DNA of 32,000 nucleotides. It comes from Buchnera aphidicola (Neophyllaphis podocarpi). GTDB lineage: Bacteria > Pseudomonadota > Gammaproteobacteria > Enterobacterales > Enterobacteriaceae. This document shows positions 2,354 through 15,951 of this stretch, in pieces; position 1 is the stretch's first letter; the number at the start of each line of letters is the position of its first letter. The stretch is taken from positions 210,001 to 242,000 of the forward strand of contig NZ_OZ060386.1 of NCBI RefSeq assembly GCF_964059055.1. Reading direction: 5' to 3'. The position numbers were made by a program, and so were the translations under genes. Under the pieces are notes generated by a model that was given only the letters and a program-made list of their open reading frames with translations, ran no database searches and was not told the DNA's origin.

Positions 2354-3078
2354 CTATTTTAAAAATTTATTTAATTTTTGATACTTTACAGCTATTCCAT
2401 AATTATAACGTAAATCTATATATACAATTTTTTTCTTATAATATATTTCTTCTTTATGTAGTATAGGCCAAATTATTATTAAATTTTTTAATTTTTCAAT
2501 TTTGTCTTTATTACCTATTTCTATTATAATGTTTGAGTTAGTTATTAATTTGCATGAGTATCTTGTTTTCATGTAAAATTCTTTTATCTTTATTCTTTTA
2601 TCTTCTAATATTTTATTAATTTTTTTATATATTACTAATATTTCAGTTTGCTTATTTTTTAATCCATATATTTTAGGAAGGTTATTTTTTATTTGATATA
2701 TTTTAGGTATATAAAATATTTTAGCATTTACATCTATCATGTAGATATCATTCCAATAAGCAATAGGTTCATATAAAATCAGATTTATTTTTAAATTATT
2801 GTCTATTGTTTTTATTTTAATATTTTTTATCCACTCAATATTTTTTAATTTATTTTTTATATAATCTAAGTTATTTTCTATATTTATACTATAATTTATT
2901 AATTTTTCTGTAGTTTTTTTAGTTTCATATTGATTTATATATTTATTATTGTTTAAAACAATTATTTCTGATATTTTATATTTAAAGTATTTATCACATT
3001 TTATATATATTTCTTTAAATAAAAAAAATATTAATATTATTAATATAGATATCAAAAAAATTTTTTTTTAATTATCAT
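2354..3078 (-). CDS. ftsQ: Cell division protein FtsQ, interrupted near the 5' end: ATG at 3078 is out of frame with the body across an A9 tract; the uninterrupted frame is 2354..3055 (TTG start)
   Basis: The 233-aa ORF starts inside the TM helix. Its C-terminal part KIKEFYMKTRYSCKLITNSNIIIEIGNKD...IVYIDLRYNYGIAVKY aligns to E. coli FtsQ [29 protein letters not shown]...ISYVDLRYDSGAAVGW. It sits between ddlB and ftsA as in E. coli. Upstream, ATG ATA ATT A9 T7 GA would read MIIKKKIFLISIL with one extra A. Confidence 0.85.
3061..3069 (-). other. A9 homopolymer (T9 on plus strand) separating the ftsQ ATG from its reading frame; candidate slippage site
   Basis: Counted directly. Plus strand 3051-3070 is atcaaaaaaa ttttttttta. 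The ATG frame ends at TGA 3054..3052. The body frame has TAA at 3070..3068. Confidence 0.8.
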
Positions 3079-4036: not shown

Positions 4037-5464
4037 CTAACTTTTTGATTTATATTTATAAAATAGTTTTAGGATTTTATTTAAATCACCAGCTCCTTGT
4101 GTGATAATAACACTATTATTACATAATATTTTTTTTAAATAGATAATTATTTCATTGTTATTATTAATAGCAATAGATTTATTAATATTTTTTTTATTTA
4201 TTGCTTTACTTAGTATTTTATTATTTATTTTATTTATTTTTTTTTCTCCTGATGAAAATATATTTAAAATTAATATTTTATCAGCTTTTAGCAATTCTTT
4301 AACAAATTGATTAAAAAGATTTTTAGTTCTTGTATATCTATGAGGTTGAAATATCATTATAATTTTTCTATTAGGCCATCCATTTTTAACGGTAATTATA
4401 TTTTCTCTAATAGCTGTAGGATGATGCCCGTAATCATCAATGATGATTACATTGAAAAATTTTTTGTTAATGTTTTGAAAAATAAATTTACCTATAATTT
4501 CAAATCTTCTTTTTGTACCTTTATAGTTTTTTAATGCTTTAATTATATATTTATCTTTGATTTTTTCTTGTTTTGATATTGCTATAGCGGCAGTTGCATT
4601 TAATGCATTATGTTTACCTGGTAAATTTACAGATACATTCATCGTTTTATCATTTTTAATTGATAATTTAAAAAATCCTATTTGTTTTTTTTGTTTGTAA
4701 CTAATTATTCTTAAATCTGCATTCTTATTAAATCCATAAGTAATAATTTTAGATTTTATTTTTTTTATTTTATTTTGAATTATTTTATTGTCTAAACATG
4801 CTATAACATATCCATCTTTAGGAATATTATTTGCAAATTTTATAAAAGTTTCTTGTAATTTGTTAAAATTTCCTTTGTATTCATGTAAGTGATCTGTATC
4901 TATGTTTGTTATAACTATATTTTTTGGTTTTAAATTTAATAATGATGCATCACTTTCGTCTGCTTCGACTATTATATTAGAATCTTTTCCTGTTGCAGAA
5001 TACTTTCCTATTAATTTTACTAATCCTCCATTAACTAAATTAGGTCTAAATCCCCCTTCGTAATATATACTAAAAATCATACTAGTAGTAGTAGTTTTAC
5101 CATGTGTTCCTGTTATTGCTATACTATTACTTACCATTTTTATAATTTCTGATAAAATTTCTGATCTATGTAATATTTTAATACCATATTTTTTTGCTGT
5201 GGTTAGCTCTATATTATTTTTTTTTATAGCACTAGAAAATACAACAATATCTGGATTATTAATATTTAATTTAGAGTGAATATTATATATTTTTACTCCT
5301 AGTTTTTTTAGATATCTTGTTATTTTGCTTTGTTTTATATCTGATCCACTAATTTTGTATTTTTTTTCTGCTAATATAGTTGCGATACTTCCCATCCCAG
5401 TACCACCAATTCCTATAAAATGAATTTTTTTAGTATTCTTTAATAATAATTTTTTTGTTTTCAT
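4037..5464 (-). CDS. murC: UDP-N-acetylmuramate--L-alanine ligase
   Basis: 475 aa. Matches to E. coli MurC: IHFIGIGGTGMGSIA, ITGTHGKTTTTSM, EADESDASLL, DDYGHHPT and QPHRYTRT. Confidence 0.97.
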   Translation of the reverse strand: MKTKKLLLKNTKKIHFIGIGGTGMGSIATILAEKKYKISGSDIKQSKITRYLKKLGVKIYNIHSKLNINNPDIVVFSSAIKKNNIELTTAKKYGIKILHRSEILSEIIKMVSNSIAITGTHGKTTTTSMIFSIYYEGGFRPNLVNGGLVKLIGKYSATGKDSNIIVEADESDASLLNLKPKNIVITNIDTDHLHEYKGNFNKLQETFIKFANNIPKDGYVIACLDNKIIQNKIKKIKSKIITYGFNKNADLRIISYKQKKQIGFFKLSIKNDKTMNVSVNLPGKHNALNATAAIAISKQEKIKDKYIIKALKNYKGTKRRFEIIGKFIFQNINKKFFNVIIIDDYGHHPTAIRENIITVKNGWPNRKIIMIFQPHRYTRTKNLFNQFVKELLKADKILILNIFSSGEKKINKINNKILSKAINKKNINKSIAINNNNEIIIYLKKILCNNSVIITQGAGDLNKILKLFYKYKSKS

Positions 5465-5473
5465 GAAAATATT

Positions 5474-6528
5474 TTATAAATCATTAATTAAATTAAAAAT
5501 TTTTTTAGTAGAATTTTTGAAATCAATTTTTTGTGATTTACATATCATTCTTACAATTTCTTTTCTATTCCAAATTTTTAAAATTTCTAAAATTTTCTTT
5601 ACAGATAAGTTTTTTTCGCTTATAATTTTTGCAATTCCCATTTTTTTTAAAATTAATGCATTAAAATATTGTTGTTTATCTTTATGATTATAAGGTATAA
5701 GTATTGATGGTAAATTTATACTTAATATTTCACTTACTGTTAATGCTCCTGATCTACCAATAATCATATCTGTCCATTCATAAGCTTCATCTATGTTTTT
5801 TATAAAATTAACTATTTGATGTTGAAATAATTTATTTTTTAAGTATATTTTTTTTATTCTAAAAAAATCTTTATTTCCAGTTTGATGTAATATTTTGATA
5901 TTGTTTTTAAGTTTTTTTGCTACTTCAACTATAACATTATTTAGTATAATAGATCCTTGACTTCCTCCTAATATCAATATTCGAATTTTTCCTTTTCTTT
6001 TTTGAAATCTTTTAAGAGGTTTATTTATATTTAATATTTCTTCTCTTATCGGATTTCCCACAATATAAGCATTGTTTAAAGTATTAGAAAAAGCTTGCAT
6101 ATTTATATTGGAAATTTTTGATAATATTTTGTTAGTTATTCCTGCCACTGTATTTTGTTCATGTACTAACAAGGGAATTTTACATATTTTTGCAGCTATT
6201 CCTACTGGTCCAGATACATAACCACCCATAACTAATATTACTTTAGGTGAAATTTTTTTAATTATTTTTATAGATTGATAACAAGCATATAAAATTTTTA
6301 TAGGAGATAATATCAATGTTTTGATTTTTTTTCCTACAATACCTTCAATATTTATAAAAAATATTTTTATTCCATATTTCGGAATCATTTTAGATTCTAT
6401 GCCATTTTTTGTGCCAATCCATATTACTTGCCAATTATTTTTTTTGAAATATTTTGCTAAGGTAATACCGGGAAATACATGTCCTCCAGAACCTCCTGCC
6501 GCTATTAAAATTTTTTTTTATTCATCAT
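5474..6528 (-). CDS. murG: Lipid II glycosyltransferase MurG, interrupted at codon 4-7: ATG ATG at 6528 is out of frame with the body across an A9 tract; the ORF-track ORF (5474..6388) lacks the N-terminal G-loop
   Basis: The body frame is open from 6517 and reads ILIAAGGSGGHVFPGITLAKYFKKNNWQVIWIGTKNGIESKMIPKYGIKI. This aligns to E. coli MurG [22 protein letters not shown]...LVPKHGIEI. The rest matches HEQN, GGSQG, GRSGALTVSE and HKDKQQYFNA. AGAAGG lies 8 nt upstream of ATG 6528. Confidence 0.93.
6511..6519 (-). other. A9 homopolymer (T9 on plus strand) separating the murG ATG from its reading frame; candidate slippage site
   Basis: Plus strand 6501-6530 is gctattaaaa ttttttttta ttcatcatta. 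The ATG frame gives MMNKKKF then TAA (6507..6505). The body frame has TAA at 6520..6518. Confidence 0.8.
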
Positions 6529-9019: not shown

Positions 9020-10090
9020 TCATAATGATATAATTCCAATTAAAAATAGTAATAAAGATATAATCCAAAGTCTAACTGTAATTTTGGATTCTTTGTATCC
9101 TTTAATTTCATAGTGATGGTGTATAGGAGCCATATTAAAAATACGTATTTTAAATATTTTAAAACAAATAACTTGTATTATTACTGAAATAGTTTCTATT
9201 ACCAAAACTCCGCCGATAATTATTAATAATATTTCTTGGTGTAGTAATAAAGCAATGATTCCTATAGTTCCACCTAAAGATAATGATCCTATATCTCCCA
9301 TAAATATTTCTGCTGGATAAGTATTAAACCACAAAAAAACTATTCCTGACCCTATAAGTGATGTACAAAATATAATCAATTCACCTGCATTACATATATA
9401 TTGTAAATTGAAATAATTTGATAAATCAATGTTCCCGCTAATAAAGGATATTATAGCAAATATTGTAGCAATTAGAATAACAGGTATTATTGCTAAACCA
9501 TCTAAACCATCTGTGATATTAACACTATTACTAGTTCCTACAATTACAAAATACATTATAATTAAATAAATCCAATTAATTTTAAAATTTATATTTTTTA
9601 TGAATGGAATAGGTAATTCATGTTTTTGATTTATACAATCGATAAATACAAAATATATTATTATAAGAGATATTATTGATAAAAATAAATATTTATATTT
9701 TGCAGTTATACCTTTGGAATTTTTTTTTGTTATTTTATAATAATCATCTATTAATCCAATTATTCCATAACTTATTAATATATATAAAATATACCATATA
9801 TAATTATTTAATAAATCTGACCAAATAATTACAGATATAATAGTTGAAATTATTATAGTTATTCCTCCCATAGTAGGAGTATTTTTTTTGTTATAATGAG
9901 ATGATGGTCCTTCATATCTTATTACTTGATTAAATTGTAAATTACTAAATAATTTTATTATATGTTTTGTTATATACACAGAAAATATTATTGAAGTTAT
10001 AAAACTACATATAGATCTGAAAATTATATAAGTAACAAATTTGTATTTTATATCTAAACAATCTAAATTTTCTATTATTCACATTAACAT
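9020..10090 (-). CDS. mraY: Phospho-N-acetylmuramoyl-pentapeptide transferase MraY with an in-frame TGA at codon 4 (10081..10079); the ORF-track ORF 9020..9979 (GTG) lacks the first TM helix
   Basis: Hand translation from ATG 10090 gives M L M * IIENLDCLDIKYKFVTYIIFRSICSFITSIIFSVYITKHIIKLFSNLQFNQVIRYEGP. This aligns without gaps to E. coli [62 protein letters not shown]. The rest matches TPTMGG, DDY.K, NLTDGLDGLA, MGD.GSL.LGG and APIHHHYE. There is no ATG, GTG or TTG between the TGA and 9979. Confidence 0.92.
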
Positions 10091-11442: not shown

Positions 11443-12925
11443 ATAATTTTTTATTTAATATTTTTAATACGGTTTCTTCATCTGAATATTTTATTTTATT
11501 TTTTCCTATCATTTGGTAATTTTCACTTCCTTTTCCTGCTATTAAGATGATATCATTCATACTTGAATTATTTACAGCAACTTTTATAGCCTTTTTCCTA
11601 TCAGGAATTACATAAGCTTTTTTTGGATTTGTAAAACCATCCAAGATATCTTTTATTATTTTATTTGGGTTTTCTGTTCTTGGATTATCATTTGTTATAA
11701 ATACTTTATTTGATAGTTTTTCTGCTATTTTTCCCATTATAGGTCTTTTTGTTTTATCTCTATCTCCGCCGCAACCAAAAATACATGTTAGTTTTTTTTT
11801 TGAATATATTGAATTTATTATTTTTATTACTTTATTTAATGCATCTGGAGTATGAGCATAATCAATTATTATTTTAGGTTTATTTGATACATAAATTTGT
11901 TGCATTCGTCCTATTATAGGTTTTATTTTTTCTACTGTTAATATAATAGAAGATAAAGAATATCCCAAAGATAATAAAGCAGCCATAGATAACAATATAT
12001 TAACTACATTAAAATTTCCTATTAAATTAACTGATATATCCCCATTTCCCCAGCTTGAATTAAAATCAATGATACTTCTAGTATTCTCATGCTTAACTTT
12101 TTTTGCATATATCCATCTTTCTCCATATTTACATTTTAAATTTGTAGTAGCAATATAAATTTTATTTCTTGATTTTATTTTTTTAAACCAATTCATTCCT
12201 ATTTTAGTGCTTATATTTATAATTGGATTTTCAATTTTATGATCAGAAAATAGTTTCCATTTTGTTTTTTCATATTTTTTCATATTTTTATGATAGTCTA
12301 AATGATCTCTACTTATATTTGTAAATATTCCTACTTTAAATGGTATGCTAGATACTCTATATTGATCCAATGCATGTGATGATATTTCTATAGCAACTGT
12401 GTTAACTCTATTTTTTAGAAAAAAATTTAAATAAGACTGTATATCAATAGCTGAATCTGTTGTATTAATAGTTTCTATTAATTTTCCGTATAATCCATTT
12501 CCTAATGTTCCTATAACAGCACTTTTATCTCCTAACAAATTAATCCATTGTGAAATTAATTGAGTTACACTTGTTTTACCATTGGTTCCTGTTACACCTA
12601 TTATATTTAATCTATTTGATGGATTGTTATAAAAATTTCCTGCTATCTTTGATATTTTTTTTCTTATATTTTTTATATAAATAATAGGTATTTTGTTTAT
12701 ATATTTTATTTTTTTATTTTTTACTTTAGACCATGAAATTACAGCATTAGCACCTTTATTTATTGCTTCTTTTATAAATTTATTCGCATCTATTTTATTA
12801 CCTTTTATTGCTATAAATAAATCTTTTTTTTTTATATTTTTACTATTTATTTTTATATTTCTTATAAGAATTTTTCTTAATTGATAATTATTTATTCCTA
12901 ATAATTTATTTAATTTTATATTCAT
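11420..12925 (-). CDS. murE: UDP-N-acetylmuramoyl-L-alanyl-D-glutamate--2,6-diaminopimelate ligase
   Basis: 501 aa. Matches to E. coli MurE: GVTGTNGKTS, SRDHLDYH, DYAHTPDAL, GCGGDRDK.KRP and the DNPR meso-DAP specificity motif (TNDNPRTE). It overlaps the murF start by 23 nt. Confidence 0.97.
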   Translation of the reverse strand: MNIKLNKLLGINNYQLRKILIRNIKINSKNIKKKDLFIAIKGNKIDANKFIKEAINKGANAVISWSKVKNKKIKYINKIPIIYIKNIRKKISKIAGNFYNNPSNRLNIIGVTGTNGKTSVTQLISQWINLLGDKSAVIGTLGNGLYGKLIETINTTDSAIDIQSYLNFFLKNRVNTVAIEISSHALDQYRVSSIPFKVGIFTNISRDHLDYHKNMKKYEKTKWKLFSDHKIENPIINISTKIGMNWFKKIKSRNKIYIATTNLKCKYGERWIYAKKVKHENTRSIIDFNSSWGNGDISVNLIGNFNVVNILLSMAALLSLGYSLSSIILTVEKIKPIIGRMQQIYVSNKPKIIIDYAHTPDALNKVIKIINSIYSKKKLTCIFGCGGDRDKTKRPIMGKIAEKLSNKVFITNDNPRTENPNKIIKDILDGFTNPKKAYVIPDRKKAIKVAVNNSSMNDIILIAGKGSENYQMIGKNKIKYSDEETVLKILNKKLYDKNILK

Positions 12926-12954: not shown

Positions 12955-14654
12955 TTAGTTGTCTGGTTTTGTATTAGTTAATTTTAATATATTACTCATA
13001 ATTTCGCTAAATATGGGAGCTGAAACTAAACCTCCATAATATTTTCCTTGGCTAGGTTCATTTATCATAATTACTAATGCAAATTTAGGGTTTCTTGATG
13101 GAGCTATACCAGCTGTATATGCTATATATTTATTTATATATTTTTTGTTTGTTCCAACTTTTTTTACTGTACCAGTTTTTACTGCTACATGATAACCTTT
13201 TACTGCAGCTTTTACCCCGCTTCCTCCGGTAGTAGTCACGCTTTCCATCATTCTTATAACTTTTTTTATTATTTCTTTTGGAAAAATTTGTTTTTCATTT
13301 TTTTTGTTTTTTAATTTCAAGATTGATACAGGACGAAAAATGCCATAGCTTCCTATAGTAGAATATAATTGTGCTACTTGTAATGGAGTTACCATTAATC
13401 CATATCCAAAAGAAAATGTTGCTTTTTCTAGCTCACTAGGATGAACATGTTTATATAATACTCCTTTTCTTTCTCCTACTAATCCTATGTTAGTTAATTT
13501 ACCTAATCCAAATTCATAATATGTATTTTTAAGTAATATTGAAGGCATAGATAAAGATATTCTAGATACTCCAACATTACTTGATTTTTTTATTATGTCT
13601 TTAGCATTTAATTGTTCATATGTATTTAAATCTTTAATTTTATACCCTTGTAATTTAAAAGGCATTGTATTTAAAATAGAATTTTCTTTAATTAAACCTA
13701 TTTGTAGCGCTTTCATTATTACTATTGGTTTAACTATAGAACCTGGTTCAAATAAATCAGTAATTGCTGTATCTCTTATAGTTGAAATGTTTTTAATATT
13801 ACTGACATTATTAGGGTTAAATGAAGGGGAATTTACTATAGATAGAATTTCTCCTGTTTTTATATCTATTAAAATTGCTGTACCTGATTTTGCTTTATTT
13901 TTTTCTACTGCTTTATTTAATATTTCATATGTAATATTTTGAAATTTTTTATCTATACTTAGTATTATATCTATAGATTTAGTTTTGCTTTTTACTAATA
14001 TGTTTTCTATTATATTGCCTTTTCCATCTTTTATGACTTTTCTTATTCCATATTTTCCTTCTAGTAATTTATTAAAACTTTTTTCTACTCCTTCTATACC
14101 TTTTCCATCAATATCTGTAAATCCTACAAGTTGAGCGGCTACTTTACCTGATGGATAATATCTACGATATTCTTCTATAGAATGAATACCTGGTATCCTT
14201 AATTTTTCAATATAATCAGTAATTTCTAATGGTATTTGTCTTGCTATGTATATAAATCTTTTTGTTTTATTTTTTTGAATTTTTTTTATTATTGAGTTAA
14301 TATCTATTGATAGAATATCTGCTAGTGCATTCCATCTTATATCTTTTTTGATAATATTTTTTTTTTCTATGTTTTTAGGATCTACCCATATTCCTTTTAC
14401 TGGTACACTAATAGCTAAAGGTTTTCCGTTTCTATCACTTATTGTACCTCTTATTACCTTTGTATTTTTAAATCTTAAAAATCTAGCATTTCCTTCTTTT
14501 ATTAATTTATTAGTATCAATAATTTGTAAGAATGTTATTCTTATTACAATTAACAATATGAGAAACATAATTAAATAATTTATAAAATTGAAGCGCCATT
14601 TTGTATATATAAAAAATTTTTTTTTCTGTATATTTTTTCTTTTAAGTTATTCAT
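12955..14654 (-). CDS. ftsI: Division-specific transpeptidase FtsI (PBP3), interrupted at codons 10-13: ATG at 14654 is out of frame with the body across an A9 tract; the ORF-track ORF is 12955..14568
   Basis: The body frame is open from 14646 and reads ...KKKFFIYTKWRFNFINYLIMFLILLIVIRITFLQII, aligning to E. coli FtsI ...ANFISWRFALLCGCILLALAFLLGRVAWLQVI. Downstream matches are RRYYPSG, GIEGVEKSF, the active-site SxxK as PGSIVKP, SSNVG, KTGT and YYGG.VSAP.F. Confidence 0.93.
14617..14625 (-). other. A9 homopolymer (T9 on plus strand) separating the ftsI ATG from its reading frame; candidate slippage site
   Basis: Plus strand 14611-14630 is aaaaaatttt tttttctgta. The ATG frame gives MNNLKEKIYRKKNFLYIQNGASIL then TAA (14582..14580). 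The body frame has TAA at 14649..14647. Confidence 0.8.
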
Positions 14655-14699: not shown

Positions 14700-14981
14700 T
14701 TAATTCATTAATTTCATTTGTAATTTTAAAATTGAAATTTGTTTTATTTTTATACTTGTATTAAATGTATTTAATTCTATACTTAAGTTTCTTAATTCAA
14801 TATTTAATTTTCTATTTTCTAAGATTAATTTTTCTTTTTTTTGTACTAATGAATGAGTTTGGTATATTATTATTACAACTAAAATAGCAGATAAAATTAC
14901 CGAAATTAATAATAAAATTTTCGCTAGATGATTATTATATAAGTCATATATAATAAATTTTACTAAATCTTTATTTTTCAT
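14700..14981 (-). CDS. ftsL: Cell division protein FtsL
   Basis: 93 aa, single TM plus coiled coil. LILENRKLNIELRNLSIE and ILKLQMK match E. coli FtsL LVLERDALDIEWRNLILE and EKLQMQ. It sits between rsmH and ftsI. Confidence 0.9.
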   Translation of the reverse strand: MKNKDLVKFIIYDLYNNHLAKILLLISVILSAILVVIIIYQTHSLVQKKEKLILENRKLNIELRNLSIELNTFNTSIKIKQISILKLQMKLMN

Positions 14982-15921: not shown

Positions 15922-15951
15922 TTAGCTATAATTTATTTTTTGATTTATACT

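Follow-up and report, generated by a model that had tools for sequence, protein, structure and literature searches.

Buchnera ftsI is cut off from its start codon by a one-base deficit fixed in a 5′ poly(A) tract and may be rescued by transcriptional slippage

The window analysed here is a stretch of 32,000 nucleotides from Buchnera aphidicola (Neophyllaphis podocarpi), corresponding to positions 210,001 to 242,000 of contig NZ_OZ060386.1, with a G+C content of about 22%. Its minus strand carries, in this order, ilvI-ilvH-rsmH-ftsL-ftsI-murE-murF-mraY-murD-ftsW-murG-murC-ddlB-ftsQ-ftsA. The gene of interest is ftsI, which encodes penicillin-binding protein 3 (PBP3) and is located in the division and cell wall (dcw) cluster, with ftsL on one side and murE on the other. 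Its start codon and the body of the gene lie in different reading frames, the break most likely being at a run of nine adenines (A9). The 5′ end of ftsI comprises the following features, in coordinates of the window:

14652..14654, minus strand: ATG start codon of ftsI, identical in the five assemblies compared; the encoded N-terminus, MNNLKEKI, is similar to MYKKEKI of other Buchnera FtsI proteins
14580..14654, minus strand: dead-end frame MNNLKEKIYRKKNFLYIQNGASIL, which starts at ATG 14654 and comprises 24 codons and the stop codon TAA (14582-14580)
14647..14649, minus strand: TAA that bounds the body frame of FtsI on its upstream side; the switch of frame has to fall between this TAA and 14583
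12955..14646, minus strand: FtsI (PBP3) body frame, 563 codons and a stop, with PBP-dimer and transpeptidase domains (NF011685, PF03717, PF00905)
14633..14638, minus strand: A6 tract, a shorter alternative site at which one added A restores the frame
14617..14625, minus strand: A9 tract (T9 on the plus strand), A9 in the window and in the four related assemblies
14611..14616, minus strand: T6 tract directly 3′ of the A9, where the public 566-aa annotation joins the frames (..RKKN/FFIY..)
14542..14598, minus strand: WRF motif (TGG CGC TTC, 14598-14590) and membrane anchor FNFINYLIMFLILLIVI, in the body frame
14566..14568, minus strand: internal ATG, Met30 of the 566-aa product and candidate reinitiation site, from which Prodigal- and PGAP-type gene calls give 537 aa

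The ATG at 14652..14654 is the ancestral start codon of ftsI. Relative to it, the body of FtsI is shifted to the -1 frame, which is open from 14646 and reads LKRKNIQKKKFFIYTKWRFNFINYLIMFL... The switch of frame has to take place within 14646-14583 (64 nt), an interval that contains the A6, the A9 and the T6. The A9 is read as AGA AAA AAA AAT in the frame of the ATG and as CAG AAA AAA AAA in the body frame. Addition of one A to this tract yields an FtsI of 566 aa, MNNLKEKIYRKKKFFIYTKWRF..., in which the junction stretch is ...IYRKKKFFIYTKW...; one A added to the A6 or one T added to the T6 also restores the frame. In the body frame, ATG 14568 is the first ATG, GTG or TTG and the only canonical start, and it follows the stop of the dead-end frame by 11 nt. 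A previous sequence-only reading of this DNA had already described the 24-codon frame opened by ATG 14654, the body frame open from 14646, the restoration of a 566-aa PBP3 by one A in the A9 or, alternatively, in the A6, and the position of ATG 14568 as sole canonical in-frame start in the middle of the anchor. All of these coordinates and products were reproduced on the sequence.

The frame break is a feature of the genome. The comparison covered five assemblies from three samples, two laboratories and two lineages: the window genome; CP135042 (L012), labelled N. varicolor and 99.4% identical to the window at the nucleotide level; the Logan assembly of SRR29340286 (L013); CP135039 (L014), labelled N. 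podocarpi and 95.9% identical to the window; and the Logan assembly of SRR29340287 (L010). The window genome is a submission separate from CP135039 and CP135042, both of which were assembled from Illumina NovaSeq data (PMC11193766). Relatives were obtained via protein search, cluster look-up and encoding-contig look-ups; a contig scan with the 537-aa protein returned Lys/Asn-rich low-complexity matches (Clostridia, Saccharimonadales and similar; 23-31% identity) and no Buchnera loci. All four related assemblies match the window in carrying ...ACAG-A9-TTTTTT... with an identical frame relation. A genomic A10, named beforehand as the observation that would speak against a broken gene, was seen neither in the window genome, nor in CP135042 or CP135039, nor in the Logan assemblies of SRR29340286 and SRR29340287. 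Because the A9 recurs in all five assemblies, including those from Illumina data and the separate submission, a homopolymer miscall is excluded for practical purposes, and an error of sequencing or assembly was accordingly discarded as the cause of the break. Most likely, the break is older than the separation of the two lineages (synonymous divergence, dS, of about 0.15). The host labels of these genomes conflict: the 566-aa FtsI entry of the window genome is labelled Neophyllaphis podocarpi, yet this genome is 99.4% identical to the N. varicolor-labelled CP135042 and 95.9% identical to the N. podocarpi-labelled CP135039.

The body of the gene is that of a complete and conserved FtsI. The NCBIfam profile NF011685 (FtsI) matches over its full length with 727 bits, just below the curated cut-off of 737; PF03717 (PBP-dimer) and PF00905 (transpeptidase) are both found, and the catalytic motifs SxxK (SIVK), SSN and KTG are intact. 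The nearest protein in the databases shares 96% identity and is likewise called from the internal ATG. Except for the single one-nucleotide break, the gene consists of 563 open codons. The ratio of non-synonymous to synonymous substitution rates (dN/dS) was estimated by the Nei-Gojobori method between the window and CP135039, that is, across a dS of 0.15. It was 0.13 for the ftsI body (synonymous differences Sd 47.5, non-synonymous differences Nd 25.5; binomial p = 1e-15 for omega <1), as compared with 0.03-0.29 for 19 neighbouring genes and with about 1.1 and 1.5 for the wrong frames of ftsI. No indel separates the two genomes in the 1.66 kb of the body; the spacers, 885 nt in total, differ by 53 substitutions and 18 gap positions. 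Purifying selection on ftsI is comparable to that acting on its intact neighbours.

These figures bear directly on the view that ftsI is an early-stage pseudogene in a division and cell-wall cluster that is starting to decay, and that it no longer gives rise to a useful protein. Peptidoglycan gene content does differ among Buchnera (PMC9116674), and 5′ defects occur in the neighbours of ftsI as well, namely breaks of murG and ftsQ at an A9, a TGA as the fourth codon of mraY, a premature stop in ftsL of CP135039 and a break of murE in CP135042. A dN/dS of 0.13 together with the lack of indels nevertheless leads to the rejection of a decaying pseudogene, unless the break were very recent and independent in both lineages. 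There are no internal stops over 553 codons across the same divergence, the three catalytic motifs are in place, and the bodies of murG and mraY have similarly low ratios (0.17 and 0.18, respectively). We regard decay of ftsI as improbable.

The codons located between the break and ATG 14568 are also informative. The NF011685 profile aligns from residue 8 of the body frame, i.e. upstream of this ATG, and the WRF motif and the initial half of the anchor are encoded by body-frame codons 5′ of it. When FtsI sequences of other Buchnera, of Serratia symbiotica and of Pantoea are aligned with the corrected product, its residues W20-R21-F22 are invariant, and its N-terminus is similar to the pattern M-x-x-K-E-K-I seen in other Buchnera. 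Between the two lineages, no change is seen in the 38 nt that begin with the ATG and end with the A9. The following 48 nt have two changes, which in the body frame are both non-synonymous (I to L and T to K), and no synonymous one. With a spacer divergence of 0.06 per site, the counts for the upstream codons are in the right direction, though not significant alone. The earlier claim that the codons upstream of ATG 14568 are still under selection is borne out in part: the invariant WRF, the Buchnera-like N-terminus and the 38 identical nucleotides show conservation, but selection on the 28 codons alone is not statistically demonstrable.

The body frame contains an N-terminal bitopic anchor with its WRF motif, which is connected to a start codon only by correction of the frame. 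The alternative with the most serious claim to be considered is that no correction takes place and that ribosomes reinitiate, or initiate independently, at ATG 14568. The functional form would then be a 537-aa FtsI starting MFLILLIVIRITFLQII, devoid of the cytoplasmic tail, the WRF motif and the first half of the anchor. The position of this ATG, as the only canonical start of the body frame and 11 nt beyond the dead-end stop, is suggestive, and the ATG is kept in both lineages. Purifying selection on the body fits such a protein equally well. Moreover, the 537-aa product retains a hydrophobic N-terminus, its Kyte-Doolittle mean over 19 residues being 2.16 as compared with 2.82 for the full-length protein. 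On the other hand, the uninterrupted apolar run is 9 residues long instead of 17, and the positively charged N-terminal flank is lost along with the invariant WRF. In E. coli, the transmembrane helix of FtsI is reported to be a determinant of septal localisation (Wissel et al. 2005), and cryo-electron microscopy of FtsWIQBL resolved it as one of 13 transmembrane helices of the membrane domain (PMC7614612). ATG 14568 also aligns to a mid-anchor position at which other FtsI proteins have no conserved Met. The ATG has no Shine-Dalgarno sequence, as is true of many genes here; the calculated Shine-Dalgarno strength is near zero at both ATG 14654 and ATG 14568 and is uninformative. Overall, we consider a protein begun at ATG 14568 to be the main rival of the full-length product, albeit a rather unlikely one.

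Translation might instead enter the body frame upstream of the anchor at a non-canonical codon, such as ATA 14631-14629 or ATA 14610-14608, and dispense with slippage altogether. ATA codons do occur in the body frame, open from 14646, and the gene calls of sister genomes begin murG at ATT and mraY at ATA. Such calls are choices made by software and do not constitute evidence. In enterobacteria, initiation at ATA or ATT is very weak, and a good ATG is available 20-40 nt upstream in the other frame, with an N-terminus like that of the orthologues. Initiation of this kind therefore appears very improbable.

Taken together, the observations favour a functional ftsI despite its fixed A9 deficit. 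In the scenario that we propose, the 5′ poly(A) tract has a fixed one-base deficit, with A9 where an in-frame gene needs A10, and the tract cuts the true start codon and 12 codons off from the remainder of the gene. RNA polymerase would slip backward on the T9 template, thereby placing one extra A in the mRNA, and a fraction of expression events would regain the frame, giving a 566-aa FtsI with the full cytoplasmic tail, the WRF motif and the transmembrane anchor. The tract represents the KKK codons of a lysine cluster preceding the anchor, as written in a genome of 22% G+C, and the same tract might act both as a hotspot of replication slippage, from which the break originated, and as a hotspot of transcription slippage, by which it is tolerated. 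The comparison of genomes demonstrates a genomic break common to two lineages in a gene under purifying selection, whereas rescue of the break, at the tract and at the RNA level, is inferred; for the complete reading, in which slippage of RNA polymerase adds one A and so provides the 566-aa protein, we would give a probability of roughly 0.5.

Transcriptional slippage is favoured since insertion of a single A is exactly what ftsI needs and insertions made during transcription in Buchnera are mostly of one nucleotide. Of the 157 transcription insertions recorded in a transcriptome-wide study of Buchnera, 151 lay in homopolymeric runs, and those within a run were all in a run of A or T; 80% of the insertions were of a single nucleotide, and their rate increased exponentially with run length up to 11 (PMC5574713). 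Where cell-wall genes of Buchnera are frameshifted, 12-50% of the transcripts have been reported to be corrected by slippage at long poly(A) tracts (Tamas et al. 2008, as summarised in PMC5009743; see also PMC3017870).

Several points nonetheless weigh against rescue by slippage. The same transcriptome-wide study did not encounter a single transcription error by which a broken frame was restored (PMC5574713). The 28 codons upstream of ATG 14568 are too few for selection to show statistically on their own. The 537-aa product might, by its hydrophobicity of 2.16, associate with the membrane. Finally, the tract is hypermutable, and recent A10-to-A9 events may conceivably have occurred in parallel in the two lineages.

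Frame correction could also take place on the ribosome. If ribosomes shifted by -1 on A-AAA-AAA, or on A-AAU-UUU, while translating unedited A9 mRNA, they would make the same 566-aa protein or its ..RKKNFFIY.. variant, the form given in the public record, and the comparative evidence fits this equally well, given the identity of the product. In the frame of the ATG, AG A-AAA-AAA AAU is indeed a canonical X-XXY-YYZ site, read by tRNA-Lys. The resemblance is to the programmed -1 frameshift of the dnaX type (A-AAA-AAG plus stimulators), with which ftsI has in common the lysine slippery heptamer and the requirement for a -1 shift. Unlike dnaX, ftsI was found to have neither a downstream hairpin nor a Shine-Dalgarno-like stimulator: downstream of the tract the minimum free energy is -2.6 kcal/mol (z = +2.1), with 199 of 200 shuffled sequences folding at least as well, and no GGAG-like sequence precedes the tract (...AAAGAAAAAATATACAG). 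Furthermore, the shift would restore a single essential product and not add a second one, and the experimental precedent in Buchnera is transcriptional (Tamas et al. 2008, as summarised in PMC5009743). Ribosomal frameshifting is a less probable explanation than initiation at ATG 14568, although a somewhat more probable one than decay of the gene.

Further features of the same kind are found in the neighbouring genes:

6511..6528, minus strand: murG break, ATG ATG AAT and A9 (6519-6511), followed by TTT TAA; A9 in all lineages
3061..3078, minus strand: ftsQ break, ATG ATA ATT, A9 (3069-3061) and T7, with the body in the -1 frame, as read from the sequence
12824..12833, minus strand: 5′ A10 tract of murE, in frame; A10 in the window and in CP135039

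The case of murG closely parallels that of ftsI. In all lineages its 5′ region is AAGAAGG-N7-ATG ATG AAT A9 TTT TAA, and the body, (KK)ILIAAGGSGGHVFPG, is in the -1 frame; its beginning, (KK)ILIAAGGSGGH, contains the GGSGGH loop. The first canonical in-frame ATG lies 41 codons past the A9, and these codons have accumulated six synonymous and three non-synonymous changes, the dN/dS of the whole gene being 0.17. As the 41 codons evolve under constraint, translation must enter the body frame of murG at or beside the tract. This argues against the use of internal start codons at ftsI too, for in murG initiation at the downstream ATG would remove the GGSGGH loop although the codons concerned are constrained.

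The ftsQ gene is also broken in CP135042, as A10 T9, and is intact in CP135039, where ATG ATA ATT A9 CA T9 opens a frame of 237 aa, MIIKKKHFFLIS... (L014 21456). That the intact gene starts from the same ATG identifies the ATG upstream of the tract as the true start of ftsQ. In both ftsI and ftsQ the tract encodes a lysine cluster that precedes the membrane anchor, which accounts for the location of the break between the ATG and the anchor. The murE tract is A9, with the frame broken, in CP135042 (L012 ~11740) and in the Logan assembly made independently from its reads, at an overall divergence from the window of 0.6%. Such a flip between A10 and A9 at 99.4% identity indicates that tract length changes on very short time scales. 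All four cases, those of ftsI, murG, ftsQ and the broken murE, need one added A.

In the whole stretch there are 29 runs of A or T of at least 9, 28 of them within genes, and 23 of these 28 are sense poly(A). Runs of this length are present in only 5.3% of 67-nt windows, yet each of the three frame breaks found here (ftsI, murG and ftsQ) coincides with an A9, which is not due to chance.

The 5′ end of mraY (10079-10090, minus strand) is interrupted in another way. It reads ATG TTA ATG TGA ATA ATA GAA... (MLM*IIENL), with TGA at codon 4, and this TGA is common to both lineages; the body of the gene has a dN/dS of 0.18. The TGA falls at the position of a Trp in E. coli MraY (MLVWLAEHL). Reassignment of TGA to Trp was considered as an explanation for this stop and rejected as a general feature, given that TGA ends 2 of 27 genes and that Trp is encoded by TGG 64 times. 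In the NCBI gene calls, mraY begins at ATA and murG at ATT, directly past the defect (L012 14490 and 18057; L014 14452 and 18016). The apparently intact mraY and murG of these genomes (352 and 345 aa, respectively) are an artefact of the choice of non-canonical starts, the DNA being the same as in the window.

Two other features were observed in this region. The ftsL gene (14700-14981) encodes 93 aa in the window and 80 aa in the CP135039 lineage, where CAA has changed to TAA 13 codons before the end (L010 ~4916-4918, and L014). The spacer between ilvH and rsmH measures 30 nt (15922-15951), which implies that no mraZ heads the dcw cluster.

It is tempting to speculate that the A9 breaks of ftsI, murG and ftsQ, together with the toggling murE tract, are a selected common throttle and not merely tolerated damage, but we consider this to be highly unlikely. 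If it were true, the slippage rate at A9 would set a shared low dose of divisome and peptidoglycan enzymes, and division and wall synthesis of the symbiont would be coupled to the conditions of transcription in the bacteriocyte.

Rescue of a poly(A) frameshift by slippage is a known phenomenon in Buchnera and Blochmannia, and the ftsI instance has already been annotated. The window genome has a 566-aa entry named "Peptidoglycan D,D-transpeptidase FtsI" (CAL4321112.1, MNNLKEKIYRKKNFFIYTKWRF...), in which the frames are joined at the boundary of the A9 and the T6. This agrees with the policy of Manzano-Marin et al., who, following Tamas 2008, annotate genes interrupted in A or T homopolymers as functional. 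In the sister genomes, PGAP-style calls give a "penicillin-binding transpeptidase domain-containing protein" of 537 or 524 aa.

The closest precedents are the Buchnera cell-wall genes and the Blochmannia histidine gene of Tamas et al. 2008, as described in PMC5009743 and PMC3017870. The Buchnera cases resemble ftsI in genus and in belonging to the cell-wall and division class. According to these descriptions, the common type is a single one-nucleotide indel in a sense poly(A) of at least 9 in an otherwise intact gene, with a break that is conserved between strains and without acceleration of evolutionary rate, and ftsI conforms to it in each respect. It differs in being another gene in another host lineage (a Neophyllaphis symbiont), known here from DNA comparison, and in that its tract is 29 nt from the start codon and upstream of the anchor, so that reinitiation is a live alternative. 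The homopolymer frameshifts of Blochmannia (Wernegreen et al. 2010, as cited in PMC3017870; dnaX, dnaG and others in B. vafer) are, like that of ftsI, common to diverged lineages and accompanied by purifying selection. Unlike these ancient frameshifts, the ftsI break is seen in two close lineages (dS 0.15, 4% apart), for which the term 'ancient' is not established. In Buchnera of Periphyllus and other Chaitophorinae, pheA has a conserved disruption at a poly(A) tract (10.1101/2022.08.28.505559), for which the same conclusion was drawn and the same annotation practice followed by the group whose policy fits the 566-aa entry; pheA, in contrast to ftsI, is a host-provisioning gene and not a division gene.

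The ftsI locus is therefore best viewed as one more well-documented case of a known phenomenon, with an internal control in ftsQ and murE, and it opens no new question. Its significance is of a practical nature. Automatic pipelines either shorten ftsI (to 537 or 524 aa) or drop frameshifted genes as pseudogenes, which would create the wrong impression that the symbiont has no proper FtsI, MurG or FtsQ. The comparative evidence indicates that ftsI, murG and ftsQ are maintained, and this matters both for annotation and for metabolic and cell-biological inference.

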